From positions 31,682,001 through 31,746,000 of the forward strand of contig OZ024746.1 in the NCBI GenBank assembly GCA_964016885.1: DNA of 64,000 bases. Direction: 5' to 3'. A program made the position numbers and the translations under genes. This DNA is from Eledone cirrhosa (Eukaryota). This document shows positions 16,678-64,000 of this stretch, piece after piece (the first letter of the stretch is position 1; each line of letters begins with the position of its first letter). A model generated the notes under the pieces. That model searched no databases and had not been told where the DNA came from. It saw only the letters and a list, made by a program, of their open reading frames with translations.

Positions 16678-19600
16678 CATCATCATCATCATCATCAACG
16701 TTTAACGTCCGTGTTCCACGCTTGCATGGGTTTGGACGGGGGTTTTCCCACTTGAGGCAAGAGTAATTGTCTTGGTCGCATAGGACTGTCTGGCAGGTTT
16801 TCTACAGTTGGATGCCCTTCCTAACACCAACCACATTTACAGTGTGGGTCTGGGAGGTTTTTACCGTGTTGCCTACACGGCCACATTACAGCGTGGACTG
16901 TGTGTTTTTTGTCGTGACACCTACACGATCTCATTTGTTTCGGCCTGGATGGTGTGGCACCAACATAACTTTACATAGAAGGGGGCGGTGTGGATGGGGT
17001 GGGACGGGGGTGTATTTTGTTAGTGATGCCTACTGACTAGTAGGTTTTACTTTGTATTTAGGTAAGGCGGGTCTTCTCTGTTACTGAGTACCGCCAAAGG
17101 TCTCGGTCCAGTGACATTGTCTTGGAGAGGTGTAAGTGTGTGAGGTCGGAATTTATCAGCTCGTCCCAGGTTTTCCTGGGTCTGCCTACTCCGTGGCTAC
17201 CATCTATCTCTATTGCCCTGCACTTTGTTATACAGCTGTCATCTTTCATGCGCATCACGTGACCATACCAACGTAGCCTTTTCTCGAGTAAACAACATCT
17301 GATCCCTCTTATTTCTAATTTTTTCCTTAGTTCGTTTATGCTTTGCCGTTCACGTATATTACTATTACACATCCAGCGGAGCATGCAAGCTTCGTTCCTC
17401 TCTAGTCTGCGTATATCCTCTGCACACAATGCCCAGGTCTAACTGCCATGCAACATTGCTGTTCGTATGCAGGCATCATACAACCTGCCTTTCATTTTTA
17501 GGGACAACCCTTTAGCGGCTTATAGTGGTATAAGCTCTCTGAACTTTTTCCATCCAGTTCTGACTCTAGCTACTGTACTTTCAGAGCACCTTCCCCCACT
17601 GCTGATTTTGTCACCCAGGTAACGGAAGCTGTCCACTATTTCTATAGAGCCCTCTGCGCAGTTGAAAGAGCTAGTATTCTGTGGGCACTTGCTGCTACTT
17701 ATTGCACCAGAGCACCGGCCACATGTAAAATCTATGTTCTTAGTTAGCTTACCTGTGATCCCACTACATCTTTTATGCACCCATACTTTGCATTTCTGAC
17801 ACAAAATGGAGTTTCTACCTACGCCTTTCCTACACACTGAGCATGGCCACTTCCCGGAAGGGACCGCCGCCTTATTTTCTTTCCTACAAACTAGAACTTT
17901 AGTCTTAGCCAGGTTAATTTTAAGGCCTTTTGATTCTAGGCCGTGCTTCCATGTTTGGAATTTCTTCTCTAGTTCGGTCATTGATTCAGCTATGAGCGTT
18001 AGATCATCTGCGTATAGGAGTTCCCATGGGCAGCCGGTCTTGAACTCCTCTGTTATAGCCTGAAGGGCAATAATAAATAGTAGGGGGCTAAGAACAGAGC
18101 CCTGATGGACACCAACTTTTACGCTAAACTCTTCACTATATTCGTTGTTAATTCTAACCTTGCTGACTGTTTCTTTATACATGGCTTGTATAGCTCTCAC
18201 AAGCCATTCGTCAACACCTAGTTTTCTAAGAGCCCACCAGATAATGGAACGGGGGACTCTGTCGAAGGCTTTCTCCAAGTCGACAAAAGCTAAGTATAGG
18301 GGTTTACTTTTAGCTAGGTACTGCTCCTGTAGTTGTCGTACAATGGAAAGAGCGTCTGTGGTACTTTTGCCTGACACAAACCCGAACTGCATTTCATCGA
18401 GGTCAATTCTCTCTCTGATTAGTTGCGCTATTACTTTTTCCGTGACCTTCATGACCTGGTCGATTAATTTAATGCCTCTATAGTTACTCCTATCTAGGGC
18501 ATCTCCTTTACCCTTATAACAGTTAACGATGATGCTGCTACGCCAGTCCTTCGGAACAACCCCATTCTGTACGACTTGGTTAACTATCCAGGTGACCATG
18601 GTGTGTCCCACCGTGCCAGATGCCTTCAGCATCTCAGCAACTATTTCCGAAGGCCCAGCTGCCTTACCCGTCTTCATATCCTTGATTGCCTTACTTATTA
18701 TACTACCCTCGACTAACACTGCTGGTCCCTCTATTGGGTCGATGTGGGGGAGACTGTCTTTCTCCCATTTATTCTCCTTATTTAGTAGCCTTTCATAGTG
18801 ACACTTCCAAGCTACCTTCTTATCAGTGTCGGTGATGGCAAGTACGCCGTCATCATTAAGTACACACTTCTCCCCGACAATATCACGGTTTTCCTTGACA
18901 CATTGCCTAGCAATCCTGAACACCTCACGTTTTTGGTCCTCGCATTGTAGAACATGCTTGAACTTTCTTTCCTCTGCTTCTCTTCTTGCGAAGTACACTT
19001 GTCTCCTAGCTTCCCATCCCGCCATACTTTCCAAGCCTGCTTTTTGGCCTTAATTGACCCCTCCACCTTACTGTTCCACCACCATGTTACTCTCCTCCTG
19101 CCTACAGGCCTGCTCCAGCCACAGACTTCGTCTGCCGTCATCAGCAGGTTTGCTTTCAGGAATTCCCACTGCACCTCTATATTGTACGACTCTAATTGCT
19201 CTTCCTTACTGTCGAAAGCATCAAGTAGTATGCTTTGAAATTTATTTCTGGTTGTGGGGTCCTTTAGCTTCCATATTTTTCTCCTGAGGATAGTCCTCTT
19301 CTGTTGTCTAGTACGTCTCGTCCTGACTATTAGGTCGCTAATTATCAGTTTATGTTGGGAGGTGCATTCTTCATGGGGGAGGGATTTAGTGTTTACAACA
19401 GACACTCTGTCACGTCTTCTGGTAAGGATATAATCTACCTGGCTTGTGTGTTCCCCGGATCTATAGGTGATCAGGTGATTGTCACGTTTTTTGAAGTTAG
19501 TGTTACAGATAGTTAGGTTATTTGCGTCACAGAATTCCAGGATTCTGGAGCCTTCCTCATTTCTAGTACCAAACCCATAGCCTCCATGGATTTCGTCGTA

Positions 19601-20398
19601 GCCGTCACAATGTTGTCCAACGTGACCATTTAGGTCGCCTGCAATAATTATATAGTCACTGTCGGTTATTTGGGAGGTAGTGAGCATCAGTGTCTCATAG
19701 AATCTGTCTTTTATAGTGCCGGGCAGTCCGGATTGGGGTGCGTACGCAGATATTATTGGCACCGTAGTTCTATTGAGGACAAGTCTTATTTTAATTATTC
19801 TGTCGTTCACTCTATTTACGTCTATTATCTTATCTGCCCACTTTTCTGCTACCATGATTCCTACTCCACCCAGCCCATCGTCATTTCCCACCCAGAAAAG
19901 CTTATAGCATCGTTTTTTACCCTCAATGAATCTAGCAGACCCACCCATCCACCTGGTCTCTTGAATACAACAAACATCGACCTCCTTACGTTCGAGCATT
20001 TCTACAACTTCGTTAGAGCGACCCTTTAAGGTGCCTACATTCATGGTACCAACTCTGAAGTTTTGGATTGCGTTTGGAGGGTGGGAGCGGTGGGGAGCGG
20101 GGGGAGATGGGGTTATGTTAGCCATCCGCGGCCGAAACAAAGAGGAGTGCTCGCATTCTCGTCCACGAGGTGAATTTGTCTTTATCTTTGTCATTGTCGC
20201 TGAGCGTCCAGATTTTTCTCTCTTCCACTCTCCAGAATTCCGTAGTCCATCCATCATATATCGAAAGGCAACCAGGTAAGCGATAGTATAGGCCTCTGGC
20301 TTATGATTGGTCCACGTAATAATAATGGTGGTGCGTGGGGGCGGGAGGGAGGGGTGTTGGGTAGTTAGCGAGAAGGTAAGGTTTGAATGAGGACGTAT
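16678..20398 (-). mobile_element. RTE-clade LINE copy 2, near full length
   Basis: (CAT)n tail at 16678-16696, ~360-nt 3' UTR, and a single APE-RT ORF at ~17058-20257. Confidence 0.95.
17058..20257 (-). pseudogene. RTE ORF (APE + RT with embedded PHD finger), disrupted by a 34-bp deletion (~19014) and stops (~17520, ~17440)
   Basis: MNVGTL, CIQETRW, SAYAPQ, GDLNGHVG, QVDYIL, SQHKL (APE); NYRGIKL, QFGF, DLEKAFDRVP, GVHQGSVLSP, YADD, FRYLG (RT). Confidence 0.93.
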
Positions 20399-26045: not shown

Positions 26046-27004
26046 ATATTTATTTCTAATTTTGACACAAGGCCAGAAAAGTTACTGTCTATATTGTTAT
26101 TGTGTTGGAAATACACTCTCAGAAACATGGGCTTTCACCAAAATCTGATGTGAAACTCTCTTCTTTCAACATTGTACACCTGACACCATCAGAGCTGATG
26201 CTACCTTTAAGATCAACCAGGCAACCACCTAGGGTGAAGACCTTAGTGGGGTATATTACTGAACCTTAAAGAACCATAGTTTCATACACATTTCTATGAT
26301 TAAATTAACTACATAATAACTTTTTGCGATCAATAAATAAAACACTAAACATCTTTGCTACATAGCAGTATTGTAGAAATATCTAAAGTGGTGGACAGGG
26401 TCATATGCTGTTATGACCTGTCATATGATTTGTCTTGGGTGAGTGTGGAATGTGTTTTGTAATTCTTACTTTACTCTAATTCCACTATTATATTTCCTAT
26501 TCACAATGCACCAGCTTTACCAATACAATTTTGACATATCTCACAAAGCTTCATATAAACTATACCACAAACTTAATAATTTTCTCAGAGTAACCAGAGC
26601 AAAAACTAGGTTCCTTAACATACCATACTGTAAATTAAAATTATTTTATTTGAGAGAATGTGGTGCATAACTGGTAGAAAATGGGCCCACATTATAAATG
26701 TTAGCCTAGGGGAGTAAATATCCACTTGTTGCCTCTACTTAGAAACAAGGGGTTACTAACAATCTATTATAACACAATCCAATTAATAATGTTTTGGTTT
26801 TGGGTTTAAATTTGTTCAAAGTCTGATGAATCTTTGATAGTTAATCAATTATTGATTAGTAATTAATTATAGTTAATCAGTTATTGATCTGTAACAGATG
26901 GTCTACATCTGTTACTGTCTGGAGTCAGAGGTTCAATCACTCTTTGAACTCCCAGAATCACTTTTTCACTGTTATGTATGTGTGAATACACATATCTAAG
27001 TATA

Positions 27005-30000
27005 TCATCATCATCATCATCATCATCATCAGGTTTAGCGTCCGTGTTCCACGCTTGCATGGGTTTGGACGGGGGTTTTCCCACTTGAGGCAAGAGTGGT
27101 TGTCTTGCTCGCATAGGACTGTCTGGCGGGTTTTCTACAGTTGGATGCCCTTCCTAACACCAACCACATTTACAGTGTGGGGCTGGGAGGTTTTTACCGT
27201 GTTGCCTACATGGCCACATTACAGCGTGGACTGTCTGGCGGGTTTTCTACAGCTGGATGCCCTTCCTAACACCAACCACATTTACAGTGTGGGGCTGGGA
27301 GGTTTTTACCGTGTTGCCTACACGGCCACATTTACAGCGTGGACTGTGTGTTTTTTTGTCGTGACACCTACACGATCTCATTTGTTTCTGCCTGGATGTT
27401 GTGGGACCAACATAACTTTACATTGAAAGGGGCGGTGTGGATGGGGTGGAGGTGGTGTGACGGGGGGGTGTTTTGATAGAGATGCCTACTGACTGTAGTA
27501 GATTTTTACTTTGTATTTAGGTAAGGCGGGTCTTCTCTATTACTGAGTACCGCCAAAGGTCTCGGTCCAGTGACATTGTCTTGGAGAGGTGTAAGCGTGT
27601 GAGGTCGGAATTTATCAGCTCGTCCCATGTTTTTCTGGGTTTGCCTACTCCGTGGCTACCATCTATCTTTATTGCCCTGCACTTTGTTATACAGCTGTCG
27701 TCTTTCATGCGCATCACGTGACCGTACCAATGTAGCCTTCTCTCGAGTAAACAACATCGGATCCCTCTTATTTCTAATTTTTTCCTTAGTTCGTTTATGC
27801 TTTGCCGTTCACGTATATTACTATTACACATCCAGCGGAGCATGCAAGCTTCGTTCCTATCTAGTCTGCGTATATCCTCTGCACACAATGCCCAGGTCTC
27901 ACTGCCATGCAACATTGCTGTTCGTATGCAGGCATCATACAACCTGCCTTTCATTTTTAGGGAGAACCCTTTAGTGGCTTATAGTGGTATAAGCTCTCTG
28001 AACTTTTTCCATCCAGTTCTGACTCTAGCTACTGTACTTTCAGAGCACCTTCCCCCACTGCTGATTTTGTCACCCAGGTAACGGAAGCTGTCCACTATTT
28101 CTATAGAGCCCTCTGCGCAGTTGAAAGAGCTAGTATTCTGTGGGCACTTGCTGCTACTTATTGCACCAGAGCACCGGCCACATGTAAAATCTATGTTCTT
28201 AGTTAGCTTACCTGTGATCCCACTACATCTTTTATGCACCCATACTTTGCATTTGGGACATAAAATGGAGTTTCTACCTACGCCTTTCCTACACACTGAG
28301 CATGGCCATTTCCCAGATAGGACTGCCGCCTTATTTTCTTTCCTACAAACTAGAACTTTAGTCTTAGCCAGGTTAATTTTAAGGCCTTTTGATTCTAGGC
28401 CGTGCTTCCATGTTTGGAATTTCTTCTCTAGTTCGGTCATTGATTCAGCTATGAGCGTTAGATCATCTGCGTATAGGAGTTCCCATGGGCAGCCGGTCTT
28501 GAACTCCTCTGTTATAGCCTGAAGGGCAATAATAAATAGTAGGGGGCTAAGAACAGAGCCCTGATGGACACCAACTTTTACGCTAAACTCTTCACTATAT
28601 TTGTTGTTAATTCTAACCTTACTGACTGTTTCTTTATACATGGCTTGTATAGCTCTCACAAGCCATTCGTCAACACCTAGTTTTCTAAGAGACCACCAGA
28701 TAATGGAACGGGGGACTCTGTCGAAGGCTTTCTCCAAGTCGACGAAGGCTAAGTATAGGGGTTTACTTTTAGCTAGGTACTTCTCCTGTAGTTGTCGTAC
28801 AATGAAAAGAGCGTCTGTGGTACTTTTGCCTGACACAAACCCGAACTGCATTTCATCTAGATCAATTCTCTCTCTGATTAGTTGCGCTATTACTTTTTCC
28901 GTGACCTTCATGACCTGGTCGATTAATTTAATGCCTCTATAGTTACTCCTATCTAGGGCATCTCCTTTTCCCTTATAGCAGTTAACGATGATGCTGCTAC
29001 GCCAGTCCTTCGGAACAACCCCATTCTGTACGACTTGGTTAACTATCCGGGTGACCATGGTGTGTCCCACCGAACCAGATGCCTTCAGCATCTCAGCAAC
29101 TATTTCCGAAGGATCAGCTGCCTTACCCGTCTTCATATCCTTGATTGCCTTACTTATTATACTACCCTCGACTAACACTGCTGGTCCCTCTATTGGGTCG
29201 ATGTGGGGGAGACTGTCTTTCTCCCATTTATTCTCCTCATTTAGTAGCCTTTCATAGTGACACTTCCAAGCTACCTTCTTATCAGCGTCGGTGATGGCAA
29301 GTACGCCGTCATCATTAAGTACACACTTCTCCCCGATATTATCACGGTTTTCCTTGACACATTGCCTGGTAATCCTGAACACCTCACGTTTTTGGTCCTC
29401 ACGTTGTAGAACATGCTTGAACTTTCTTTCCTCTGCTTCCCTTCTTGCGAAGTACACTTGTCTCCTAGCTTCCCTCCTGGCCACTTAATAGTCTTCTCTA
29501 CTTCCCCCATCCCGCCATGCTTTCCAAGCCTGCTTTTTGGCCTTAATTGACTCCTCCACCTTACTGTTCCACCACCATGTTACTCTCCTCCTACCTACAG
29601 GCCTGCTCCAGCCACAGACTTCGTCTGCCGCCGTCAGTAGGTTTGCTGTCAGGAATTTCCACTGTTCCTCTATATTATACGACTCTAATTGCTCTTCCTT
29701 ACTGTCGAAAGCGTCAAGTAATATGCTTTGAAATTTATTTCTGGCTATGGGGTCCTTTAGCTTCCATATTTTTCTCCTGAGGAGAGTCCTCTTCCGCTGT
29801 CTAGTACGTCTCGTCCTGACTATGAGGTCGCTAATTATCAGTCTATGTTGGGAGGTGAATTCTTCATGGGGGAGGGATTTAGTGTTAACAACAGACGCTC
29901 TGTCACGTCTTCTGGTAAGGATATAATCTACCTGGCTTGTGTGTTCCCCCGATCTATAGGTGATCAAGTGATTGTCTCGTTTTTTGAAGTTAGTGTTACA

Positions 30001-30870
30001 GATAGTTAAGTTATTTGCGTCGCAGAATTCCAGGATTCTGGAGCCTTCCTCATTTCTAGTACCGAAAGCCTCCATGGATTCCGTCATAGCCGTCACAATG
30101 TTGTCCAACGTGACCATTTAGGTCGCCTGCAATAACTATATAGTCACTGTCGGTTATTTGGGAGGTAGCGAGCATCAGTGTCTCGTAGAATCTGTCTTTT
30201 ATAGCGCCGGGCAGTCCGGATTGTGGTGCGTACGCAGATATTACAGTCACCGTAGTTTTATTGAGGACAAGTCTTATTTTAATTATTCTGTCGTTCACTC
30301 TATTTACGTCTATTATCTTATCTGCCCACTTTTCTGCTACCATGATTCCTACCCCACCCAACCCATTGTCATTTCCCACCCAGAAAAGCTTATAGCATTG
30401 AATCGATGAATCTAGCCGACCCTCCCCTCCCCCTGGTCTCTTGAATACAACAAACATCGACCTCCTTACGTTCAAGCATTTCTACAACCTCGTTAGAGCG
30501 ACCCTTTAAGGTGCCTACATTCATGGTACCAACTCTGAAGTTTTGGATTGCGTTTGGAGGGTGGGAGCGGTGGGGAGCGGTGGGGGAACGGGGGGGTTAT
30601 ATTAGCCATCCTGGGCCGAAACAAGGAGGAGTGCTTGCATTCTCGTCCACGAGGTGAATTTGGCTTTATCTTTGGCATTGTCGCTGAGCGTCCACATTTT
30701 TCTCTCTTCAACTCTCCAGAATTCCGTAGTCCATCCATCATATCGAAAAGTAACCAGTTAAGCGATAGTATGGGCCTCTGACTTATGATTGGTCCACGTA
30801 ATAATGGTGGTGCGTGGGGACGGTTGGGAGGGATGATGGGTTGTTAGCGAGAATGTAAGGTTTAAGATAA
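27005..30870 (-). mobile_element. RTE-clade LINE copy 3, near full length, 5' end fused to the tandem array
   Basis: Colinear and highly similar to 16678-20398. (CAT)n tail at 27005-27031. ORF ~27517-30741 is broken by stops (27979, 29485) and small indels (~30065, ~30405). Confidence 0.95.
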
Positions 30871-33800
30871 GATCGCCGTATTTTGGGCATAATTTAACAA
30901 TAAACGAAAATACAAGATTTGTTTTGTTTAATAAAATACGATAGAGAAAATGCGGTGATAGGGAAAATATGATTTTTAGAGAAAAAAATATGATATAGAA
31001 TGGTGAAAATATGATATAGTGTGAAATTAGGACATAGAATAGTGATTGAATGAATGGATTCGAATGGAGAGAAGAGTCGAGAAAAAAAATACGATATATA
31101 ATGGTGAACATATGATATAGTGTGAAATTAGGACATAGAATAGTGATTGAATGAATGGATTCGAATGGAGAGAAGAGTCGAGAAAAAAAAAATACGATAT
31201 AGAATGGTGAAAATATGATATAGTGTGAAATTAGGACATAGAATAGTGATTGAATGAATGGATTCGAATGGAGAGAAGAGTCGAGAAAAAAAATACGATA
31301 TATAATGGTGAACATATGATATAGTGTGAAATTAGGACATAGAATAGTGATTGAATGAATGGATTCGAATGGAGAGAAGAGTCGAGAAAAAAAAAATACG
31401 ATATAGAATGGTTAAAATATGATATAGTGTGAAATTAGGACATAGAATAGTGATTGAATGAATGGATTCGAATGGAGAGAAGAATCGAGAAAAATATTTG
31501 AACGTTACTTTATACCGCAGGAACAGCCATCCCAGAAATAGCGAGTTGGCGATTTTGACTAATTTTGGTAGGGTTTATCTTATATGTATAGAGAGGGGGG
31601 GGGGGGGGGGCAGATCAGCATGATGTATGGGTAGGGGGTAGAAGATGGGATGGAGCAGAGGTTAAGAGTTTAAATAGGTACTCGAAGTTTTGCGTAAAAC
31701 TTAGCAAGTTTAACAAAATATACTTAAGGAATATATAATAGTGATTTGTTTTGTTATGAAAATACGACAGAATATGAAAATATGACAGAATTAAACGAGA
31801 ATGTAAGGTTTAAGATAAGATCGCCGTATTTTGGGCATAATTTAACAATAAACGAAAATACAAGATTTGTTTTGTTTAAGAAAATACGATAGAGAAAATG
31901 CGGTGATAGGGAAAATATGATTTTTAGAGAAAAAAATATGATATAGAATGGTGAAAATATGATATATTGTGAAATTAGGACATAGAATAGTGATTGAATG
32001 AATGGATTCGAATGGAGAGAAGAGTCGAGAAAAAAAAATACGATATAGAATGGTGAAAATATGATATAGTGTGAAATTAGGACATAGAATAGTGATTGAA
32101 TGAATGGATTCGAATGGAGAGAAGAATCGAGAAAAATATTTGAACGTTACTTTATACCGCAGGAACAGCCATCCCAGAAATAGCGAGTTGGCGATTTTGA
32201 CTAATTTTGGTAGGGTTTATCTTATATGTATAGAGAGGGGGTGGGGGGCAGACCAGCATGATGTATGGGTAGGGGGTAGCAGATGGGATGGAGCTTAGGT
32301 TAAGAGTTTAAATAGGTACTCGAAGTTTTGCGTAAAACTTAGCAAGTTTAACAAAATATATTTAAGGAATATATAATAGTGATTTGTTTTGTTATGAAAA
32401 TACGACAGAATATGAAAATATGACAGAATTAAACGAGAATGTAAGGTTTAAGATAAGATCGCCGTATTTTGGGCATAATTTAACAATAAACGAAAATACA
32501 AGATTTGTTTTGTTTAAGAAAATACGATAGAGAAAATGCGGTGATAGGGAAAATATGATTTTTAGAGAAAAAAATATGATATAGAATGGTGAAAATATGA
32601 TATAGTGTGAAATTAGGACATAGAATAGTGATTGAATGAATGGATTCGAATGGAGAGAAGAGTCGAGAAAAAAAAAAATACGATATAGAATGGTGAAAAT
32701 ATGATATAGTGTGAAATTAGGACATAGAATAGTGATTGAATGAATGGATTCGAATGGAGAGAAGAATCGAGAAAAATATTTGAACGTTACTTTATACCGC
32801 AGGAACAGCCATCCCAGAAATAGCGAGTTGGCGATTTTGACTAATTTTGGTAGGGTTTATCTTATATGTATAGAGAGGGGGTGGGGGGCAGACCAGCATG
32901 ATGTATGGGTAGGGGGTAGCAGATGGGATGGAGCTTAGGTTAAGAGTTTAAATAGGTACTCGAAGTTTTGCGTAAAACTTAGCAAGTTTAACAAAATATA
33001 TTTAAGGAATATATAATAGTGATTTGTTTTGTTATGAAAATACGACAGAATATGAAAATATGACAGAATTAAACGAGAATGTAAGGTTTAAGATAAGATC
33101 GCCGTATTTTGGGCATAATTTAACAATAAACGAAAATACAAGATTTGTTTTGTTTAAGAAAATACGATAGAGAAAATGCGGTGATAGGGAAAATATGATT
33201 TTTAGAGAAAAAAATATGATATAGAATGGTGAAAATATGATATAGTGTGAAATTAGGACATAGAATAGTGATTGAATGAATGGATTCGAATGGAGAGAAG
33301 AGTCGAGAAAAAAAAAAATACGATATAGAATGGTGAAAATATGATATAGTGTGAAATTAGGACATAGAATAGTGATTGAATGAATGGATTCGAATGGAGA
33401 GAAGAATCGAGAAAAATATTTGAACGTTACTTTATACCGCAGGAACAGCCATCCCAGAAATAGCGAGTTGGCGATTTTGACTAATTTTGGTAGGGTTTAT
33501 CTTATATGTATAGAGAGGGGAGGGGGGACAGACCAGCATGATGTATGGGTAGGGGGTAGAAGATGGGATGGAGCAGAGGTTAAGAGTTTAAATAGGTACT
33601 CGATGTTTTGCGTAAAACTTAGCAAGTTTAACAAAATATATTTAAGGAATATATAATAGTGATTTGTTTTGTTATGAAAATACGACAGAATATGAAAATA
33701 TGACAGAATTAAACGAGAATGTAAGGTTTAAGATAAGATCGCCGTATTTTGGGCATAATTTAACAATAAACGAAAATACAAGATTTGTTTTGTTTAAGAA

Positions 33801-36800
33801 AATACGATAGAGAAAATGCGGTGATAGGGAAAATATGATTTTTAGAGAAAAAAATATGATATAGAATGGTGAAAATATGATATAGTGTGAAATTAGGACA
33901 TAGAATAGTGATTGAATGAATGGATTCGAATGGAGAGAAGAGTCGAGAAAAAAAAAATACGATATAGAATGGTGAAAATATGATATAGTGTGAAATTAGG
34001 ACATAGAATAGTGATTGAATGAATGGATTCGAATGGAGAGAAGAATCGAGAAAAATATTTGAACGTTACTTTATACCGCAGGAACAGCCATCCCAGAAAT
34101 AGCGAGTTGGCGATTTTTTCTAATTTTGGTAGGGTTTATCTTATATGTATAGAGAGGGGGTGGGGGGCAGACCAGCATGATGTATGGGTAGGGGGTAGCA
34201 GATGGGATGGAGCAGAGGTTAAGAGTTTAAATAGGTACTCGAAGTTTTGCGTAAAACTTAGCAAGTTTAACAAAATATACTTAAGGAATATATAATAGTG
34301 ATTTGTTTTGTTATGAAAATACGACAGAATATGAAAATATGACAGAATTAAACGAGAATGTAAGGTTTAAGATAAGATCGCCGTATTTTGGGCATAATTT
34401 AACAATAAACGAAAATACAAGATTTGTTTTGTTTAAGAAAATACGATAGAGAAAATGCGGTGATAGGGAAAATATGATTTTTAGAGAAAAAAATATGATA
34501 TAGAATGGTGAAAATATGATATATTGTGAAATTAGGACATAGAATAGTGATTGAATGAATGGATTCGAATGGAGAGAAGAGTCGAGAAAAAAAAATACGA
34601 TATAGAATGGTGAAAATATGATATAGTGTGAAATTAGGACATAGAATAGTGATTGAATGAATGGATTCGAATGGAGAGAAGAATCGAGAAAAATATTTGA
34701 ACGTTACTTTATACCGCAGGAACAGCCATCCCAGAAATAGCGAGTTGGCGATTTTTTCTAATTTTGGTAGGGTTTATCTTATATGTATAGAGAGGGGGTG
34801 GGGGGCAGACCAGCATGATGTATGGGTAGGGGGTAGCAGATGGGATGGAGCTTAGGTTAAGAGTTTAAATAGGTACTCGAAGTTTTGCGTAAAACTTAGC
34901 AAGTTTAACAAAATATATTTAAGGAATATATAATAGTGATTTGTTTTGTTATGAAAATACGACAGAATATGAAAATATGACAGAATTAAACGAGAATGTA
35001 AGGTTTAAGATAAGATCGCCGTATTTTGGGCATAATTTAACAATAAACGAAAATACAAGATTTGTTTTGTTTAAGAAAATACGATAGAGAAAATGCGGTG
35101 ATAGGGAAAATATGATTTTTAGAGAAAAAAATATGATATAGAATGGTGAAAATATGATATAGTGTGAAATTAGGACATAGAATAGTGATTGAATGAATGG
35201 ATTCGAATGGAGAGAAGAATCGAGAAAAATATTTGAACGTTACTTTATACCGCAGGAACAGCCATCCCAGAAATAGCGAGTTGGCGATTTTGACTAATTT
35301 TGGTAGGGTTTATCTTATATGTATAGAGAGGGGGGGGGGGACAGACCAGCATGATGTATGGGTAGGGGGTAGAAGATGGGATGGAGCAGAGGTTAAGAGT
35401 TTAAATAGGTACTCGATGTTTTGCGTAAAACTTAGCAAGTTTAACAAAATATATTTAAGGAATATATAATAGTGATTTGTTTTGTTATGAAAATACGACA
35501 GAATATGAAAATATGACAGAATTAAACGAGAATGTAAGGTTTAAGATAAGATCGCCGTATTTTGGGCATAATTTAACAATAAACGAAAATACAAGATTTG
35601 TTTTGTTTAAGAAAATACGATAGAGAAAATGCGGTGATAGGGAAAATATGATTTTTAGAGAAAAAAATATGATATAGAATGGTGAAAATATGATATAGTG
35701 TGAAATTAGGACATAGAATAGTGATTGAATGAATGGATTCGAATGGAGAGAAGAGTCGAGAAAAAAAAAATACGATATAGAATGGTGAAAATATGATATA
35801 GTGTGAAATTAGGACATAGAATAGTGATTGAATGAATGGATTCGAATGGAGAGAAGAATCGAGAAAAATATTTGAACGTTACTTTATACCGCAGGAACAG
35901 CCATCCCAGAAATAGCGAGTTGGCGATTTTGACTAATTTTGGTAGGGTTTATCTTATATGTATAGAGAGGGGGGGGGGGGGCAGACCAGCATGATGTATG
36001 GGTAGGGGGTAGAAGATGGGATGGAGCAGAGGTTAAGAGTTTAAATAGGTACTCGAAGTTTTGCGTAAAACTTAGCAAGTTTCACAAAATATATTTAAGG
36101 AATATATAATAGTGATTTGTTTTGTTATGAAAATACGACAGAATATGAAAATATGACAGAATTAAACGAGAATGTAAGGTTTAAGATAAGATCGCCGTAT
36201 TTTGGGCATAATTTAACAATAAACGAAAATACAAGATTTGTTTTGTTTAAGAAAATACGATAGAGAAAATGCGGTGATAGGGAAAATATGATTTTTAGAG
36301 AAAAAAATATGATATAGAATGGTGAAAATATGATATAGTGTGAAATTAGGACATAGAATAGTGATTGAATGAATGGATTCGAATGGAGAGAAGAGTCGAG
36401 AAAAAAAAAAAAATACGATATAGAATGGTGAAAATATGATATAGTGTGAAATTAGGACATAGAATAGTGATTGAATGAATGGATTCGAATGGAGAGAAGA
36501 ATCGAGAAAAATATTTGAACGTTACTTTATACCGCAGGAACAGCCATCCCAGAAATAGCGAGTTGGCGATTTTGACTAATTTTGGTAGGGTTTATCTTAT
36601 ATGTATAGAGAGGGGAGGGGGGACAGACCAGCATGATGTATGGGTAGGGGGTAGAAGATGGGATGGAGCAGAGGTTAAGAGTTTAAATAGGTACTCGATG
36701 TTTTGCGTAAAACTTAGCAAGTTTAACAAAATATATTTAAGGAATATATAATAGTGATTTGTTTTGTTATGAAAATACGACAGAATATGAAAATATGACA

Positions 36801-39800
36801 GAATTAAACGAGAATGTAAGGTTTAAGATAAGATCGCCGTATTTTGGGCATAATTTAACAATAAACGAAAATACAAGATTTGTTTTGTTTAAGAAAATAC
36901 GATAGAGAAAATGCGGTGATAGGGAAAATATGATTTTTAGAGAAAAAAATATGATATAGAATGGTGAAAATATGATATAGTGTGAAATTAGGACATAGAA
37001 TAGTGATTGAATGAATGGATTCGAATGGAGAGAAGAGTCGAGAAAAAAAATACGATATATAATGGTGAACATATGATATAGTGTGAAATTAGGACATAGA
37101 ATAGTGATTGAATGAATGGATTCGAATGGAGAGAAGAATCGAGAAAAATATTTGAACGTTACTTTATACCGCAGGAACAGCCATCCCAGAAATAGCGAGT
37201 TGGCGATTTTTTCTAATTTTGGTAGGGTTTATCTTATATGTATAGAGAGGGGGTGGGGGGCAGACCAGCATGATGTATGGGTAGGGGGTAGCAGATGGGA
37301 TGGAGCAGAGGTTAAGAGTTTAAATAGGTACTCGAAGTTTTGCGTAAAACTTAGCAAGTTTAACAAAATATATTTAAGGAATATATAATAGTGATTTGTT
37401 GTGTTATGAAAATACGACAGAATATGAAAATATAACAGAATTAAACGAGAATGTAAGGTTTAAGATAAGATCGCCGTATTTTGGGCATAATTTAACAATA
37501 AACGAAAATACAAGATTTGTTTTGTTTAAGAAAATACGATAGAGAAAATGCGGTGATAGGGAAAATATGACTTTTAGAGAAAAAAATATGATATAGAATG
37601 GTGAAAATATGATATAGTGTGAAATTAGGACATAGAATAGTGATTGAATGAATGGATTCGAATGGAGAGAAGAGTCGAGAAAAAAAAAATACGATATAGA
37701 ATGGTGAAAATATGATATAGTGTGAAATTAGGACATAGAATAGTGATTGAATGAATGGATTCGAATGGAGAGAAGAGTCGAGAAAAAAAATACGATATAT
37801 AATGGTGAACATATGATATAGTGTGAAATTAGGACATAGAATAGTGATTGAATGAATGGATTCGAATGGAGAGAAGAGTCGAGAAAAAAAAAATACGATA
37901 TAGAATGGTGAAAATATGATATAGTGTGAAATTAGGACATAGAATAGTGATTGAATGAATGGATTCGAATGGAGAGAAGAATCGAGAAAAATATTTGAAC
38001 GTTACTTTATACCGCAGGAACAGCCATCCCAGAAATAGCGAGTTGGCGATTTTGACTAATTTTGGTAGGGTTTATCTTATATGTATAGAGAGGGGGGGGG
38101 GGCAGACCAGCATGATGTATGGGTAGGGGGTAGAAGATGGGATGGAGCAGAGGTTAAGAGTTTAAATAGGTACTCGAAGTTTTGCGTAAAACTTAGCAAG
38201 TTTCACAAAATATATTTAAGGAATATATAATAGTGATTTGTTTTGTTATGAAAATACGACAGAATATGAAAATATGACAGAATTAAACGAGAATGTAAGG
38301 TTTAAGATAAGATCGCCGTATTTTGGGCATAATTTAACAATAAACGAAAATACAAGATTTGTTTTGTTTAAGAAAATACGATAGAGAAAATGCGGTGATA
38401 GGGAAAATATGATTTTTAGAGAAAAAAATATGATATAGAATGGTGAAAATATGATATAGTGTGAAATTAGGACATAGAATAGTGATTGAATGAATGGATT
38501 CGAATGGAGAGAAGAGTCGAGAAAAAAAAAAAATACGATATAGAATGGTGAAAATATGATATAGTGTGAAATTAGGACATAGAATAGTGATTGAATGAAT
38601 GGATTCGAATGGAGAGAAGAATCGAGAAAAATATTTGAACGTTACTTTATACCGCAGGAACAGCCATCCCAGAAATAGCGAGTTGGCGATTTTGACTAAT
38701 TTTGGTAGGGTTTATCTTATATGTATAGAGAGGGGAGGGGGGACAGACCAGCATGATGTATGGGTAGGGGGTAGAAGATGGGATGGAGCAGAGGTTAAGA
38801 GTTTAAATAGGTACTCGATGTTTTGCGTAAAACTTAGCAAGTTTAACAAAATATATTTAAGGAATATATAATAGTGATTTGTTTTGTTATGAAAATACGA
38901 CAGAATATGAAAATATGACAGAATTAAACGAGAATGTAAGGTTTAAGATAAGATCGCCGTATTTTGGGCATAATTTAACAATAAACGAAAATACAAGATT
39001 TGTTTTGTTTAAGAAAATACGATAGAGAAAATGCGGTGATAGGGAAAATATGATTTTTAGAGAAAAAAATATGATATAGAATGGTGAAAATATGATATAG
39101 TGTGAAATTAGGACATAGAATAGTGATTGAATGAATGGATTCGAATGGAGAGAAGAGTCGAGAAAAAAAATACGATATATAATGGTGAACATATGATATA
39201 GTGTGAAATTAGGACATAGAATAGTGATTGAATGAATGGATTCGAATGGAGAGAAGAATCGAGAAAAATATTTGAACGTTACTTTATACCGCAGGAACAG
39301 CCATCCCAGAAATAGCGAGTTGGCGATTTTGACTAATTTTGGTAGGGTTTATCTTATATGTATAGAGAGGGGGGGGGGGGGGGCAGACCAGCATGATGTA
39401 TGGGTAGGGGGTAGAAGATGGGATGGAGCAGAGGTTAAGAGTTTAAATAGGTACTCGATGTTTTGCGTAAAACTTAGCAAGTTTAACAAAATATATTTAA
39501 GGAATATATAATAGTGATTTGTTTTGTTATGAAAATACGACAGAATATGAAAATATGACAGAATTAAACGAGAATGTAAGGTTTAAGATAAGATCGCCGT
39601 ATTTTGGGCATAATTTAACAATAAACGAAAATACAAGATTTGTTTTGTTTAAGAAAATACGATAGAGAAAATGCGGTGATAGGGAAAATATGATTTTTAG
39701 AGAAAAAAATATGATATAGAATGGTGAAAATATGATATAGTGTGAAATTAGGACATAGAATAGTGATTGAATGAATGGATTCGAATGGAGAGAAGAGTCG

Positions 39801-42800
39801 AGAAAAAAAAAATACGATATAGAATGGTGAAAATATGATATAGTGTGAAATTAGGACATAGAATAGTGATTGAATGAATGGATTCGAATGGAGAGAAGAA
39901 TCGAGAAAAATATTTGAACGTTACTTTATACCGCAGGAACAGCCATCCCAGAAATAGCGAGTTGGCGATTTTTTCTAATTTTGGTAGGGTTTATCTTATA
40001 TGTATAGAGAGGGGGTGGGGGGCAGACCAGCATGATGTATGGGTAGGGGGTAGCAGATGGGATGGAGCAGAGGTTAAGAGTTTAAATAGGTACTCGAAGT
40101 TTTGCGTAAAACTTAGCAAGTTTAACAAAATATATTTAAGGAATATATAATAGTGATTTGTTGTGTTATGAAAATACGACAGAATATGAAAATATAACAG
40201 AATTAAACGAGAATGTAAGGTTTAAGATAAGATCGCCGTATTTTGGGCATAATTTAACAATAAACGAAAATACAAGATTTGTTTTGTTTAAGAAAATACG
40301 ATAGAGAAAATGCGGTGATAGGGAAAATATGACTTTTAGAGAAAAAAATATGATATAGAATGGTGAAAATATGATATAGTGTGAAATTAGGACATAGAAT
40401 AGTGATTGAATGAATGGATTCGAATGGAGAGAAGAGTCGAGAAAAAAAAAATACGATATAGAATGGTGAAAATATGATATAGTGTGAAATTAGGACATAG
40501 AATAGTGATTGAATGAATGGATTCGAATGGAGAGAAGAGTCGAGAAAAAAAATACGATATATAATGGTGAACATATGATATAGTGTGAAATTAGGACATA
40601 GAATAGTGATTGAATGAATGGATTCGAATGGAGAGAAGAGTCGAGAAAAAAAAAATACGATATAGAATGGTTAAAATATGATATAGTGTGAAATTAGGAC
40701 ATAGAATAGTGATTGAATGAATGGATTCGAATGGAGAGAAGAATCGAGAAAAATATTTGAACGTTACTTTATACCGCAGGAACAGCCATCCCAGAAATAG
40801 CGAGTTGGCGATTTTGACTAATTTTGGTAGGGTTTATCTTATATGTATAGAGAGGGGGGGGGGCAGATCAGCATGATGTATGGGTAGGGGGTAGAAGATG
40901 GGATGGAGCAGAGGTTAAGAGTTTAAATAGGTACTCGAAGTTTTGCGTAAAACTTAGCAAGTTTAACAAAATATACTTAAGGAATATATAATAGTGATTT
41001 GTTTTGTTATGAAAATACGACAGAATATGAAAATATGACAGAATTAAACGAGAATGTAAGGTTTAAGATAAGATCGCCGTATTTTGGGCATAATTTAACA
41101 ATAAACGAAAATACAAGATTTGTTTTGTTTAAGAAAATACGATAGAGAAAATGCGGTGATAGGGAAAATATGATTTTTAGAGAAAAAAATATGATATAGA
41201 ATGGTGAAAATATGATATAGTGTGAAATTAGGACATAGAATAGTGATTGAATGAATGGATTCGAATGGAGAGAAGAGTCGAGAAAAAAAAAAATACGATA
41301 TAGAATGGTGAAAATATGATATAGTGTGAAATTAGGACATAGAATAGTGATTGAATGAATGGATTCGAATGGAGAGAAGAATCTAGAAAAATATTTGAAC
41401 GTTACTTTATACCGCAGGAACAGCCATCCCAGAAATAGCGAGTTGGCGATTTTGACTAATTTTGGTAGGGTTTATCTTATATGTATAGAGAGGGGGGGGG
41501 GGGACAGACCAGCATGATGTATGGGTAGGGGGTAGAAGATGGGATGGAGCAGAGGTTAAGAGTTTAAATAGGTACTCGATGTTTTGCGTAAAACTTAGCA
41601 AGTTTAACAAAATATATTTAAGGAATATATAATAGTGATTTGTTTTGTTATGAAAATACGACAGAATATGAAAATATGACAGAATTAAACGAGAATGTAA
41701 GGTTTAAGATAAGATCGCCGTATTTTGGGCATAATTTAACAATAAACGAAAATACAAGATTTGTTTTGTTTAAGAAAATACGATAGAGAAAATGCGGTGA
41801 TAGGGAAAATATGATTTTTAGAGAAAAAAATATGATATAGAATGGTGAAAATATGATATAGTGTGAAATTAGGACATAGAATAGTGATTGAATGAATGGA
41901 TTCGAATGGAGAGAAGAGTCGAGAAAAAAAATACGATATATAATGGTGAACATATGATATAGTGTGAAATTAGGACATAGAATAGTGATTGAATGAATGG
42001 ATTCGAATGGAGAGAAGAATCGAGAAAAATATTTGAACGTTACTTTATACCGCAGGAACAGCCATCCCAGAAATAGCGAGTTGGCGATTTTGACTAATTT
42101 TGGTAGGGTTTATCTTATATGTATAGAGAGGGGGGGGGGGGGGGGGCAGACCAGCATGATGTATGGGTAGGGGGTAGAAGATGGGATGGAGCAGAGGTTA
42201 AGAGTTTAAATAGGTACTCGAAGTTTTGCGTAAAACTTAGCAAGTTTCACAAAATATATTTAAGGAATATATAATAGTGATTTGTTTTGTTATGAAAATA
42301 CGACAGAATATGAAAATATGACAGAATTAAACGAGAATGTAAGGTTTAAGATAAGATCGCCGTATTTTGGGCATAATTTAACAATAAACGAAAATACAAG
42401 ATTTGTTTTGTTTAAGAAAATACGATAGAGAAAATGCGGTGATAGGGAAAATATGATTTTTAGAGAAAAAAATATGATATAGAATGGTGAAAATATGATA
42501 TAGTGTGAAATTAGGACATAGAATAGTGATTGAATGAATGGATTCGTATGGAGAGAAGAGTCGAGAAAAAAAAAATACGATATAGAATGGTGAAAATATG
42601 ATATAGTGTGAAATTAGGACATAGAATAGTGATTGAATGAATGGATTCGAATGGAGAGAAGAATCGAGAAAAATATTTGAACGTTACTTTATACCGCAGG
42701 AACAGCCATCCCAGAAATAGCGAGTTGGCGATTTTGACTAATTTTGGTAGGGTTTATCTTATATGTATAGAGAAGGGGGGGGGGGCAGACCAGCATGATG

Positions 42801-45800
42801 TATGGGTAGGGGGTAGAAGATAGGATGGAGCAGAGGTTAAGAGTTTAAATAGGTACTCGAAGTTTTGCGTAAAACTTAGCAAGTTTCACAAAATATATTT
42901 AAGGAATATATAATAGTGATTTGTTTTGTTATGAAAATAGGACAGAATATGAAAATATGACAGAATTAAACGAGAATGTAAGGTTTAAGATAAGATCGCC
43001 GTATTTTGGGCATAATTTAACAATAAACGAAAATACAAGATTTGTTTTGTTTAAGAAAATACGATAGAGAAAATGCGGTGATAGGGAAAATATGATTTTT
43101 AGAGAAAAAAATATGATATAGAATGGTGAAAATATGATATAGTGTGAAATTAGGACATAGAATAGTGATTGAATGAATGGATTCGTATGGAGAGAAGAGT
43201 CGAGAAAAAAAAAATACGATATAGAATGGTGAAAATATGATATAGTGTGAAATTAGGACATAGAATAGTGATTGAATGAATGGATTCGAATGGAGAGAAG
43301 AATCGAGAAAAATATTTGAACGTTACTTTATACCGCAGGAACAGCCATCCCAGAAATAGCGAGTTGGCGATTTTGACTAATTTTGGTAGGGTTTATCTTA
43401 TATGTATAGAGAGGGGGGGGGGGGGCAGACCAGCATGATGTATGGGTAGGGGGTAGAAGATAGGATGGAGCAGAGGTTAAGAGTTTAAATAGGTACTCGA
43501 AGTTTTGCGTAAAACTTAGCAAGTTTCACAAAATATATTTAAGGAATATATAATAGTGATTTGTTTTGTTATGAAAATACGACAGAATATGAAAATATGA
43601 CAGAATTAAACGAGAATGTAAGGTTTAAGATAAGATCGCCGTATTTTGGGCATAATTTAACAATAAACGAAAATACAAGATTTGTTTTGTTTAAGAAAAT
43701 ACGATAGAGAAAATGCGGTGATAGGGAAAATATGATTTTTAGAGAAAAAAATATGATATAGAATGGTGAAAATATGATATAGTGTGAAATTAGGACATAG
43801 AATAGTGATTGAATGAATGGATTCGAATGGAGAGAAGAGTCGAGAAAAAAAAAATACGATATAGAATGGTGAAAATATGATATAGTGTGAAATTAGGACA
43901 TAGAATAGTGATTGAATGAATGGATTCGAATGGAGAGAAGAGTCGAGAAAAAAAATACGATATATAATGGTGAACATATGATATAGTGTGAAATTAGGAC
44001 ATAGAATAGTGATTGAATGAATGGATTCGAATGGAGAGAAGAGTCGAGAAAAAAAAAATACGATATAGAATGGTTAAAATATGATATAGTGTGAAATTAG
44101 GACATAGAATAGTGATTGAATGAATGGATTCGAATGGAGAGAAGAATCGAGAAAAATATTTGAACGTTACTTTATACCGCAGGAACAGCCATCCCAGAAA
44201 TAGCGAGTTGGCGATTTTGACTAATTTTGGTAGGGTTTATCTTATATGTATAGAGAGGGGGGGGGGGGCAGATCAGCATGATGTATGGGTAGGGGGTAGA
44301 AGATGGGATGGAGCAGAGGTTAAGAGTTTAAATAGGTACTCGAAGTTTTGCGTAAAACTTAGCAAGTTTAACAAAATATACTTAAGGAATATATAATAGT
44401 GATTTGTTTTGTTATGAAAATACGACAGAATATGAAAATATGACAGAATTAAACGAGAATGTAAGGTTTAAGATAAGATCGCCGTATTTTGGGCATAATT
44501 TAACAATAAACGAAAATACAAGATTTGTTTTGTTTAAGAAAATACGATAGAGAAAATGCGGTGATAGGGAAAATATGATTTTTAGAGAAAAAAATATGAT
44601 ATAGAATGGTGAAAATATGATATAGTGTGAAATTAGGACATAGAATAGTGATTGAATGAATGGATTCGAATGGAGAGAAGAGTCGAGAAAAAAAAAATAC
44701 GATATAGAATGGTGAAAATATGATATAGTGTGAAATTAGGACATAGAATAGTGATTGAATGAATGGATTCGAATGGAGAGAAGAATCTAGAAAAATATTT
44801 GAACGTTACTTTATACCGCAGGAACAGCCATCCCAGAAATAGCGAGTTGGCGATTTTGACTAATTTTGGTAGGGTTTATCTTATATGTATAGAGAGGGGG
44901 GGGGGACAGACCAGCATGATGTATGGGTAGGGGGTAGAAGATGGGATGGAGCAGAGGTTAAGAGTTTAAATAGGTACTCGATGTTTTGCGTAAAACTTAG
45001 CAAGTTTAACAAAATATATTTAAGGAATATATAATAGTGATTTGTTTTGTTATGAAAATACGACAGAATATGAAAATATGACAGAATTAAACGAGAATGT
45101 AAGGTTTAAGATAAGATCGCCGTATTTTGGGCATAATTTAACAATAAACGAAAATACAAGATTTGTTTTGTTTAAGAAAATACGATAGAGAAAATGCGGT
45201 GATAGGGAAAATATGATTTTTAGAGAAAAAAATATGATATAGAATGGTGAAAATATGATATAGTGTGAAATTAGGACATAGAATAGTGATTGAATGAATG
45301 GATTCGAATGGAGAGAAGAGTCGAGAAAAAAAATACGATATATAATGGTGAACATATGATATAGTGTGAAATTAGGACATAGAATAGTGATTGAATGAAT
45401 GGATTCGAATGGAGAGAAGAATCGAGAAAAATATTTGAACGTTACTTTATACCGCAGGAACAGCCATCCCAGAAATAGCGAGTTGGCGATTTTGACTAAT
45501 TTTGGTAGGGTTTATCTTATATGTATAGAGAGGGGGGGGGGGCAGACCAGCATGATGTATGGGTAGGGGGTAGAAGATGGGATGGAGCAGAGGTTAAGAG
45601 TTTAAATAGGTACTCGAAGTTTTGCGTAAAACTTAGCAAGTTTCACAAAATATATTTAAGGAATATATAATAGTGATTTGTTTTGTTATGAAAATACGAC
45701 AGAATATGAAAATATGACAGAATTAAACGAGAATGTAAGGTTTAAGATAAGATCGCCGTATTTTGGGCATAATTTAACAATAAACGAAAATACAAGATTT

Positions 45801-48800
45801 GTTTTGTTTAAGAAAATACGATAGAGAAAATGCGGTGATAGGGAAAATATGATTTTTAGAGAAAAAAATATGATATAGAATGGTGAAAATATGATATAGT
45901 GTGAAATTAGGACATAGAATAGTGATTGAATGAATGGATTCGTATGGAGAGAAGAGTCGAGAAAAAAAAAATACGATATAGAATGGTGAAAATATGATAT
46001 AGTGTGAAATTAGGACATAGAATAGTGATTGAATGAATGGATTCGAATGGAGAGAAGAATCGAGAAAAATATTTGAACGTTACTTTATACCGCAGGAACA
46101 GCCATCCCAGAAATAGCGAGTTGGCGATTTTGACTAATTTTGGTAGGGTTTATCTTATATGTATAGAGAGGGGGGGGGGGGGCAGACCAGCATGATGTAT
46201 GGGTAGGGGGTAGAAGATAGGATGGAGCAGAGGTTAAGAGTTTAAATAGGTACTCGAAGTTTTGCGTAAAACTTAGCAAGTTTCACAAAATATATTTAAG
46301 GAATATATAATAGTGATTTGTTTTGTTATGAAAATACGACAGAATATGAAAATATGACAGAATTAAACGAGAATGTAAGGTTTAAGATAAGATCGCCGTA
46401 TTTTGGGCATAATTTAACAATAAACGAAAATACAAGATTTGTTTTGTTTAAGAAAATACGATAGAGAAAATGCGGTGATAGGGAAAATATGATTTTTAGA
46501 GAAAAAAATATGATATAGAATGGTGAAAATATGATATAGTGTGAAATTAGGACATAGAATAGTGATTGAATGAATGGATTCGTATGGAGAGAAGAGTCGA
46601 GAAAAAAAAAATACGATATAGAATGGTGAAAATATGATATAGTGTGAAATTAGGACATAGAATAGTGATTGAATGAATGGATTCGAATGGAGAGAAGAAT
46701 CGAGAAAAATATTTGAACGTTACTTTATACCGCAGGAACAGCCATCCCAGAAATAGCGAGTTGGCGATTTTGACTAATTTTGGTAGGGTTTATCTTATAT
46801 GTATAGAGAGGGGGGGGGGGGCAGACCAGCATGATGTATGGGTAGGGGGTAGAAGATAGGATGGAGCAGAGGTTAAGAGTTTAAATAGGTACTCGAAGTT
46901 TTGCGTAAAACTTAGCAAGTTTCACAAAATATATTTAAGGAATATATAATAGTGATTTGTTTTGTTATGAAAATACGACAGAATATGAAAATATGACAGA
47001 ATTAAACGAGAATGTAAGGTTTAAGATAAGATCGCCGTATTTTGGGCATAATTTAACAATAAACGAAAATACAAGATTTGTTTTGTTTAAGAAAATACGA
47101 TAGAGAAAATGCGGTGATAGGGAAAATATGATTTTTAGAGAAAAAAATATGATATAGAATGGTGAAAATATGATATAGTGTGAAATTAGGACATAGAATA
47201 GTGATTGAATGAATGGATTCGAATGGAGAGAAGAGTCGAGAAAAAAAAAAAAATACGATATAGAATGGTGAAAATATGATATAGTGTGAAATTAGGACAT
47301 AGAATAGTGATTGAATGAATGGATTCGAATGGAGAGAAGAATCGAGAAAAATATTTGAACGTTACTTTATACCGCAGGAACAGCCATCCCAGAAATAGCG
47401 AGTTGGCGATTTTGACTAATTTTGGTAGGGTTTATCTTATATGTATAGAGAGGGGGGGGGGGGGGGGCAGACCAGCATGATGTATGGGTAGGGGGTAGAA
47501 GATGGGATGGAGCAGAGGTTAAGAGTTTAAATAGGTACTCGAAGTTTTGCGTAAAACTTAGCAAGTTTCACAAAATATATTTAAGGAATATATAATAGTG
47601 ATTTGTTTTGTTATGAAAATACGACAGAATATGAAAATATGACAGAATTAAACGAGAATGTAAGGTTTAAGATAAGATCGCCGTATTTTGGGCATAATTT
47701 AACAATAAACGAAAATACAAGATTTGTTTTGTTTAAGAAAATACGATAGAGAAAATGCGGTGATAGGGAAAATATGATTTTTAGAGAAAAAAATATGATA
47801 TAGAATGGTGAAAATATGATATAGTGTGAAATTAGGACATAGAATAGTGATTGAATGAATGGATTCGAATGGAGAGAAGAGTCGAGAAAAAAAAAAAATA
47901 CGATATAGAATGGTGAAAATATGATATAGTGTGAAATTAGGACATAGAATAGTGATTGAATGAATGGATTCGAATGGAGAGAAGAGTCGAGAAAAATATT
48001 TGAACGTTACTTTATACCGCAGGAACAGCCATCCCAGAAATAGCGAGTTGGCGATTTTGACTAATTTTGGTAGGGTTTATCTTATATGTATAGAGAGGGG
48101 GGGGGCAGACCAGCATGATGTATGGGTAGGGGGTAGAAGATGGGATGGAGCAGAGGTTAAGAGTTTAAATAGGTACTCGAAGTTTTGCGTAAAACTTAGC
48201 AAGTTTCACAAAATATATTTAAGGAATATATAATAGTGATTTGTTTTGTTATGAAAATACGACAGAATATGAAAATATGACAGAATTAAACGAGAATGTA
48301 AGGTTTAAGATAAGATCGCCGTATTTTGGGCATAATTTAACAATAAACGAAAATACAAGATTTGTTTTGTTTAAGAAAATACGATAGAGAAAATGCGGTG
48401 ATAGGGAAAATATGATTTTTAGAGAAAAAAATATGATATAGAATGGTGAAAATATGATATAGTGTGAAATTAGGACATAGAATAGTGATTGAATGAATGG
48501 ATTCGAATGGAGAGAAGAGTCGAGAAAAAAAAAATACGATATAGAATGGTGAAAATATGATATAGTGTGAAATTAGGACATAGAATAGTGATTGAATGAA
48601 TGGATTCGAATGGAGAGAAGAATCGAGAAAAATATTTGAACGTTACTTTATACCGCAGGAACAGCCATCCCAGAAATAGCGAGTTGGCGATTTTGACTAA
48701 TTTTGGTAGGGTTTATCTTATATGTATAGAGAGGGGAGGGGGGACAGACCAGCATGATGTATGGGTAGGGGGTAGAAGATGGGATGGAGCAGAGGTTAAG

Positions 48801-63800: not shown

Positions 63801-64000
63801 GAATGAATGGATTCGAATGGAGAGAAGAGTCGAGAAAAAAAAAAAAATACGATATAGAATGGTGAAAATATGATATAGTGTGAAATTAGGACATAGAATA
63901 GTGATTGAATGAATGGATTCGAATGGAGAGAAGAATCGAGAAAAATATTTGAACGTTACTTTATACCGCAGGAACAGCCATCCCAGAAATAGCGAGTTGG
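30848..64000. repeat. Tandem (satellite) array, about 50 units of ~640 bp (variants ~536 and ~843 bp) with nested ~102-bp subrepeat; continues past the window end
   Basis: The core gaacgttactttataccgcaggaacagccatccc recurs at ~640-bp spacing (ORF-track starts 32104, 32744, 33384, 34023, 34661...). Units differ by a few SNPs, homopolymer lengths and subrepeat number. Confidence 0.99.

Follow-up and report, generated by a model that had tools for sequence, protein, structure and literature searches.

The window analysed (64,000 nucleotides; G000:C6:31,682,001-31,746,000, in a genome of 3.0 Gb) contained a minus-strand LINE, copy 3 (27004-30847), and a tandem array that abuts the end of its body at 30848 with zero spacer, as a preliminary description of this DNA had reported. 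That description had also noted non-satellite sequence on the 3' side of copy 3, and this was borne out. The main features of the locus are the following:

27004..27031, minus strand: tail at the 3' end of copy 3, reading (GAT)n in sense orientation and (ATC)n on the plus strand
27032..27516, minus strand: 3' UTR of copy 3, containing a 112-bp tandem duplication (27116-27347) absent from copy 2, a related LINE in the window
27517..30741, minus strand: single ORF region of copy 3, with endonuclease, reverse transcriptase and PHD-like Cys finger
30742..30847, minus strand: tether of copy 3, 106 nt, non-repeated, from the ATG to the first unit
30848..31795, minus strand: unit 1, the type A unit nearest the body, 948 bp long and containing five ~102-bp subrepeats
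30848..64000, minus strand: portion of the array lying in the window, with 50 of its 105 unit starts

The array had been described as 33 kb long, a size that corresponds only to the part inside the window (50 unit starts). The full array measured 71.3 kb with 105 unit starts, and extended beyond the window to G000:C6:31,784,168 in the single assembly used, where a partial unit was followed by ordinary TA/CA-rich flank. Neither the array nor the 144 kb examined around it contained any N. The proposed unit length of 640 bp held for most copies (636-642 bp) but not for the remainder, which were 532-540, 840-847, 941-948 or ~1,050 bp long. These steps came from the number of copies of an internal ~102-bp subrepeat, usually two, with one, four, five or six in the variants. 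Open frames of ~153 codons within the array varied with subrepeat number and were taken as chance. Although the plus strand is G-rich, a regular expression for the strict four-run G-quadruplex pattern found none in the unit.

The ORF of copy 3 was disrupted by three frameshifts as well as in-frame stops. Three of the sibling copies examined possessed an intact ORF (1,070-1,078 aa) with the frame starting 106 nt from the unit; the single ORF of sibling L115, 1,078 aa long, has its start at this distance. The LINE ORF matched the Pfam domains Exo_endo_phos and RVT_1 and included a PHD-like finger; it was the only ORF, without an ORF1. With ~3.7-3.8 kb and a (GAT)n tail, the body is in line with the short length (about 3.2-3.6 kb) and 3' microsatellite tail of RTE elements. 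A mean length of 3,583 bp is given for RTE-BovB in the accessible text of PMC10294476, and 3' microsatellite tails in RTE elements are described in that of PMC13295347. The architecture (length, single ORF, (GAT)n tail) therefore fits an RTE-like LINE, and the assignment rests on it. Among 1,022 homologs of the LINE protein, the best 120 were mostly unnamed EN-RT-PHD proteins with 54-65% identity, and none of the 120 listed was named RTE.

Other LINEs were present in the window. On the minus strand, a 970-codon open frame (1967-4876) encoding endonuclease, RT and zf-RVT belonged to an L1/Tx1-type LINE unrelated to the array. On the plus strand were a broken LINE with an RT match (8190-10845) and a distant-family LINE (~22700-25550); the latter had ~68% identity to copy 3, and no unit sequence could be seen on its 5' side. 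Copy 2 comprised the following parts:

16677-20398: copy 2 as a whole, 94.3% identical to copy 3 over 3,654 columns
16677..20368, minus strand: body of copy 2, of a sister subfamily
20369..20392, minus strand: opening 24 nt of a type B unit, at the point where copy 2 is 5'-truncated

The junction of copy 2 corresponded to that of copy 3, with 15 of 16 bases matching (20369-20384) and (TA)n next, so that the shared stretch first noticed at its 5' end was found again. The weaker similarity reported past these 16 nt was also present and is explained by a different unit type, since copy 2 carries the first 24 nt of type B, a unit of 583 bp that is homologous to type A and occurs in tandem at loci L131/L132. 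Two related ~500-bp inverted-repeat (MITE-like) elements were located at 15450-15961 and 16182-16677, the second adjoining the tail of copy 2.

The same junction was found throughout the genome. A 28-mer spanning body and unit had 187 exact matches genome-wide, and its reversed control had 0. All of the 29 other loci among the top matches ran into the unit in phase (30 of 40 matches retrieved; 18 nt of this query were unit sequence). When the query was restricted to the body, 27 of 30 loci, one of which was the window itself, ran into the unit in phase and three had no unit at the expected place. A 20-mer of the body near the junction had 996 matches in the genome, and the first 30 by position all ran into unit-family sequence (30/30; one with a 173-nt offset and two being identical duplicates); reference sequences for unit types C-F were drawn from these position-ordered loci. 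The body-unit junction is thus the normal anatomy of the family and not a chance fusion, and the suggestion that the unit is a family-wide 5' tandem monomer of this LINE was upheld by these in-phase junctions. The preliminary description had proposed as an alternative that the LINE was joined to an older array through 16 nt of microhomology, and had regarded an absence of unit sequence past those 16 nt in other copies as evidence against the monomer; the outcome was the opposite. The microhomology fusion was rejected because hundreds of dispersed copies carry the junction in phase together with tens to thousands of nucleotides of unit.

Unit types A, B, C and F were homologous, with alignment scores of 81-509 against at most 7 for 10 shuffles each, and types B, C and F were also found in tandem. 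They were 69-86% identical, compared to 92.7-97.5% for the adjacent 1.3 kb of body, so that subfamily-specific unit types diverge faster than the body, a trait expected of L1Md-type monomer promoters. In every subfamily sampled, the 106-nt tether was followed by head-to-tail units of ~0.5-0.6 kb in variable number. The 111 completed type A tracts had a median length of 481 nt and a maximum of 3.4 kb; 49 exceeded one 536-bp unit and 13 exceeded two (1,072 nt). New copies were 5'-truncated somewhere in the unit tract, mostly into (TA)n targets, and some retained more than one unit.

Long arrays were traced from the first 100 of 344 and the first 100 of 177 pattern matches, and more are possible. 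At least four further copies had arrays of 8-38 kb attached at the body junction, one of them belonging to another subfamily:

C2:362.3 Mb: attached array, 38.1 kb, starting at the body junction
C3:196.09 Mb: attached type C array, ~19.7 kb, on a full-length body
C21:31.53 Mb: attached array, at least 15.5 kb, mostly of a 204-bp subunit
C1:366.54 Mb: attached array, 8.2 kb, on a copy with an intact ORF of 1,078 aa
C1:365.68 Mb: array of 26.5 kb, with an assembly gap at its proximal end that hides any LINE attachment

Tract lengths thus formed a continuum, from short tracts with a median of 481 nt to arrays of 8, 15+, 20, 26+, 38 and 71 kb. Sub-units of ~100-200 bp also expanded independently (L125, C2:355.17 Mb; L129+L190, C21:31.53 Mb; L144), and unit length was therefore reset repeatedly. 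In the C21 array, 63 of 68 spacings were near 200 bp, and the 122-bp repeats of L144 took in tether sequence.

Five of the six long arrays examined (copy 3's and five traced from the matches listed) started exactly at the body junction and in the right orientation. This bears on a satellite-first origin, a broad form of the microhomology alternative, in which a pre-existing satellite supplied an ancestral LINE with its 5' end and the long arrays would be former satellite loci that LINEs were joined into or beside. The array at C1:365.68 Mb, which shows no LINE at its gapped proximal end, would suit such an origin, and the share of matches traced leaves room for free-standing arrays. Against this, the units of every array are fixed for the haplotype and type found in the LINE subfamily that carries it, and the arrays are internally less diverged than the copy 3 body is from its relatives. 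Together with the five exact junctions, these observations make a satellite-first origin very improbable.

Within the copy 3 array, 104 of 104 junctions read AGAATTAAA, whereas all 97 same-class junctions of the other loci compared read AGAATTAAG. A second allele was present in 105 of 105 cores of the array compared to two of 30 dispersed cores, one of these two being the locus whose body is nearest to copy 3. Core differences amounted to 0.3-1.8% within arrays and 3.7-4.8% between most arrays, with 0.4% between the two C1 arrays. The copy 3 body had 1.30% private substitutions among 12 bodies, and its array showed 16 singleton columns across 104 units, a mean pairwise difference of 0.9% and recurring multi-unit blocks. 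In the C2 array, four identical copies of a 185-bp insertion were spaced 8.46, 8.46 and 5.8 kb apart within blocks that were 99.8% identical. The private junction base of the copy 3 array and the copied insertion of the C2 array indicate that the arrays likely grew in place after insertion of the LINE; private alleles and copied insertion alike point to growth at the DNA level. The earlier suggestion that the unit had expanded into a macrosatellite at the copy 3 locus agrees with the locus-private junction base and the multi-unit blocks. Tandem arrays are generally known to grow by unequal exchange or break-induced replication.

Alternatively, an RNA copy of a master locus could have brought in the whole long array at a single insertion. 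Multi-unit tracts do move, and a 694-bp unit form occurred at three loci (C1:361.26, C1:365.68 and C5:1.36 Mb). However, the longest completed dispersed tract among 111 was 3.4 kb, the private junction base was seen at none of the other loci compared, and 105 units with ~1.3% private changes each would be expected to show several hundred singletons, whereas 16 columns were seen. One-step insertion accordingly has a probability of only a few percent at most in our assessment, and multiplication in place after insertion is the reading retained.

Comparison of both flanks revealed no exact target-site duplication around copy 3 and its array. One stretch of the left flank resembled the sequence at the other side:

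26994..27005, plus strand: stretch of the left flank of copy 3 resembling the first 10 nt past the far end of the array, with a 2-nt gap

This stretch is possibly a degraded target-site duplication. The two flanks were also considered as halves of one interrupted repeat; each was searched against the genome, which gave only short common-repeat matches, and this origin was rejected. The missing exact duplication, together with the dependence of length and contiguity on one assembly, could be taken to mean that the array is real but its length or the link between its flanks is an assembly artefact, either because the repeat was over-expanded or because the shared unit led to the joining of two loci. 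Such an artefact is improbable, as no N occurred in the 144 kb examined, locus-private alleles were found at both ends of the array, and the units showed shared, ordered variants with few singletons, as true tandem duplication gives. As a weaker point, the two sides of the insertion share a stretch of 225 bp with 77% identity and equal orientation (25878-26083, and ~390-615 nt past the far end of the array), which was the sole other match listed for that part of the query.

The 5' ends of dispersed type A copies were unevenly distributed within the unit. The corresponding features in the first unit of copy 3 are:

31542..31561, minus strand: counterpart in unit 1 of the 5'-end hot spot that dispersed type A copies show at unit positions 287-306
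31576..31611, minus strand: TATA-like motif ATATAAGATAAA (sense strand), at about -28 from the hot spot, with a C/CT run before the motif

Eighteen of 111 type A ends fell in unit positions 287-306, compared to 2.07 expected, and 0 of 5,000 simulated scans were as extreme; the hot-spot window was chosen in the same data with scan correction, and seven of 15 censored tracts duplicated complete ones, slightly inflating exposure. A stricter baseline gave 18 against 3.8 expected. Within the 55 position-ordered loci, a subset of the type A set, 10 ends lay in the hot spot against 0.93 expected. Hot-spot ends came from tracts of 274 to 1,875 nt and hence not from one parent. The hot spot was located in the block best conserved among the five unit types; the TATA-like motif was kept in all types, as was TCGCCAA, which lies within the hot-spot site and was invariant. 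The spacing between a TATA motif and its transcription start is the basis for reading motif and hot spot as a core promoter. With these two elements as evidence, the type A unit probably holds a promoter, a proposal held with somewhat less confidence than array growth in place.

The remaining 93 type A ends were outside the hot spot, and the hot spot did not recur in type C: one of 23 copies reaching the homologous site ended there, compared to 18 of 97 for type A (Fisher p = 0.12). The type C set comprised 40 loci, of which two duplicates were dropped; among the 38 left, 15 ended before the site, 22 passed it and one ended within it. Several type C ends lay in the unit's own (TA)n, where end position is ambiguous.

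The scatter of most type A ends and the lack of a type C hot spot would suit a unit that lacks promoter function and behaves as a neutral, hypervariable VNTR at the 5' end. RNA would then start elsewhere, by host read-through or from an internal promoter in tether or body, and the type A hot spot would reflect RNA cleavage, a hairpin or an end-joining preference; in-place expansion would still hold. Two further observations are in line with such a unit: among local hairpins in the sense RNA, the strongest one (-11.3 kcal/mol) has its start at the type A hot spot, and the units have diverged at about three to five times the rate of the body. However, a stall of the reverse transcriptase would be expected at the 3' foot of the hairpin (unit 258-262; two ends) and not at its 5' foot, and AT/TA is sparse at the hot spot (3 per 20 nt). 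An HDV-like or hammerhead ribozyme in the unit was rejected after 0 Rfam matches up to E = 5 over 30300-33200, and no fold was common to the five unit types (0 consensus base pairs, in a staggered, imperfectly registered alignment). The presence of the TATA-like motif and TCGCCAA in all unit types also speaks against neutrality. A neutral unit is thus possible but considerably less probable than one holding a promoter.

Overall, the best explanation, given a probability of about 75%, is that the array consists of the tandem 5' unit, likely a promoter, of an RTE-like LINE family; it came in with copy 3 and then probably expanded on site to 71 kb. Copies having one unit junction or more would lengthen by repeated local duplication of blocks of units, through unequal exchange or break-induced replication, giving rise to locus-specific arrays. 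At the copy 3 locus, one founder junction would have been amplified post-insertion while the ORF decayed. More tentatively, the C/CT-run and TATA-like promoter of each type A unit would start RNA ~28 nt downstream, in mid-unit, so that a daughter copy would lose that promoter and retain the promoters of units further downstream. Tandem units may in this way keep the family transcribable, and macrosatellites may be the runaway tail of unit-number variation.

A broader and more speculative proposal, which we consider rather unlikely as a whole, is that array growth is part of the element's life cycle. With the promoter upstream of the start site inside each unit, each retrotransposition would discard a promoter, and only copies whose units grow again in place would remain long-term sources. 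Where an intact copy bears a long array, as at C1:366.54 Mb (8.2 kb of array, 1,078-aa ORF), the locus would act as a multi-promoter master. An RTE lineage would then have independently evolved the mouse L1 monomer solution, and would seed macrosatellites genome-wide.

The organization of the family resembles that of mouse L1Md elements, as described in the accessible text of Zhou and Smith (2019, PMC6454616). In both, tandem 5' units in variable number are joined to the ORF by a short tether, subfamilies have different unit types, and very long tracts are rare. The longest reported tract of L1Md monomers (A, Gf, Tf) comprises 50 monomers (11.3 kb), and 99% have at most 10, whereas arrays reach 38 and 71 kb here. 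The enrichment of L1Md 5' ends at one site inside the unit was found here for type A but not for type C (1/23). Promoter activity has been shown for L1Md, while here it is predicted, and how 5' monomer tracts lengthen is stated in the same text to be unresolved for mouse L1. The present LINE belongs to another clade with one ORF, and its units are 0.5-0.6 kb with nested 102/204-bp subrepeats, compared to ~0.2 kb in mouse. Membership in the L1 clade was rejected, as a single ORF and a (GAT)n tail differ from the ORF1 and poly(A) tail of L1; the two systems are analogous.

A second parallel is offered by satellites of Ogre/Tat LTR-retrotransposons in Lathyrus sativus, which derive from 3' UTR repeats and whose expansions gather in primary constrictions, according to the accessible text of Vondrak et al. 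(PMC7004042). There also, short arrays are normal within the mobile element and expand to long satellites repeatedly and from several variants. Here, however, the repeats form the 5' end of a non-LTR element and each array is anchored to one body, whereas Ogre is a plant LTR element and the repeats lie in its 3' UTR. By analogy, the LINE array appears to work like L1Md monomers and Ogre-derived satellites, and is a member of neither.

Among cephalopod elements, RTE-2_OV of Octopus vulgaris (Petrosino et al. 2022, PMC9115989, accessible text) is similar in its single ORF (1,109 aa, compared to 1,078 aa here), its endonuclease, RT, zinc finger and 3' microsatellite, and its ~600-nt 5' UTR. Microsatellite makes up most of its 3' UTR, whereas that of the present LINE has ~0.5 kb before the tail, the two elements being compared by description only. 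The word "tandem" occurs 0 times in the main text of that paper, and "monomer" and "satellite" are absent from the main text of an octopus repeat annotation (PMC13282606). In the openly readable literature, consulted mostly as abstracts, no RTE element was found to be reported with arrays of 5' monomers or with macrosatellites derived from its 5' end.

The family offers one way for satellite DNA to arise from a retrotransposon, with the birth of a satellite apparently caught while the parent element is still attached (five loci, two subfamilies), so that founder unit, insertion age and array age are directly comparable at the attached arrays. Other LINE-derived satellites include the cetacean common satellite (L1), CR1-derived centromeric repeats in chicken and the rat L1 5' repeats. 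The cetacean and chicken repeats consist of internal or 3' fragments that were amplified, and are not known to retain a link to the 5' end of an element. Should the unit be a promoter, a second LINE clade would have acquired tandem promoters independently. Repeat pipelines would split such an element into "LINE" and "satellite" and miss the 5' end of the family.

Concerning insertion sites, 70 of 94 5' flanks of family copies began with TA repeats. At L272, L281 and L272-like loci on C1, a second copy of the family was inserted tail-first into the 5' unit of another; the L272 insertion sits at the unit's own (TA)n tract, and units can therefore be targets of the family. In addition, nine copies (L146-L153, L257; G000:C1 7.3-9.4 Mb) were located inside a long 18-bp minisatellite of ~2 Mb, perhaps a satellite-rich or centromere-like region.
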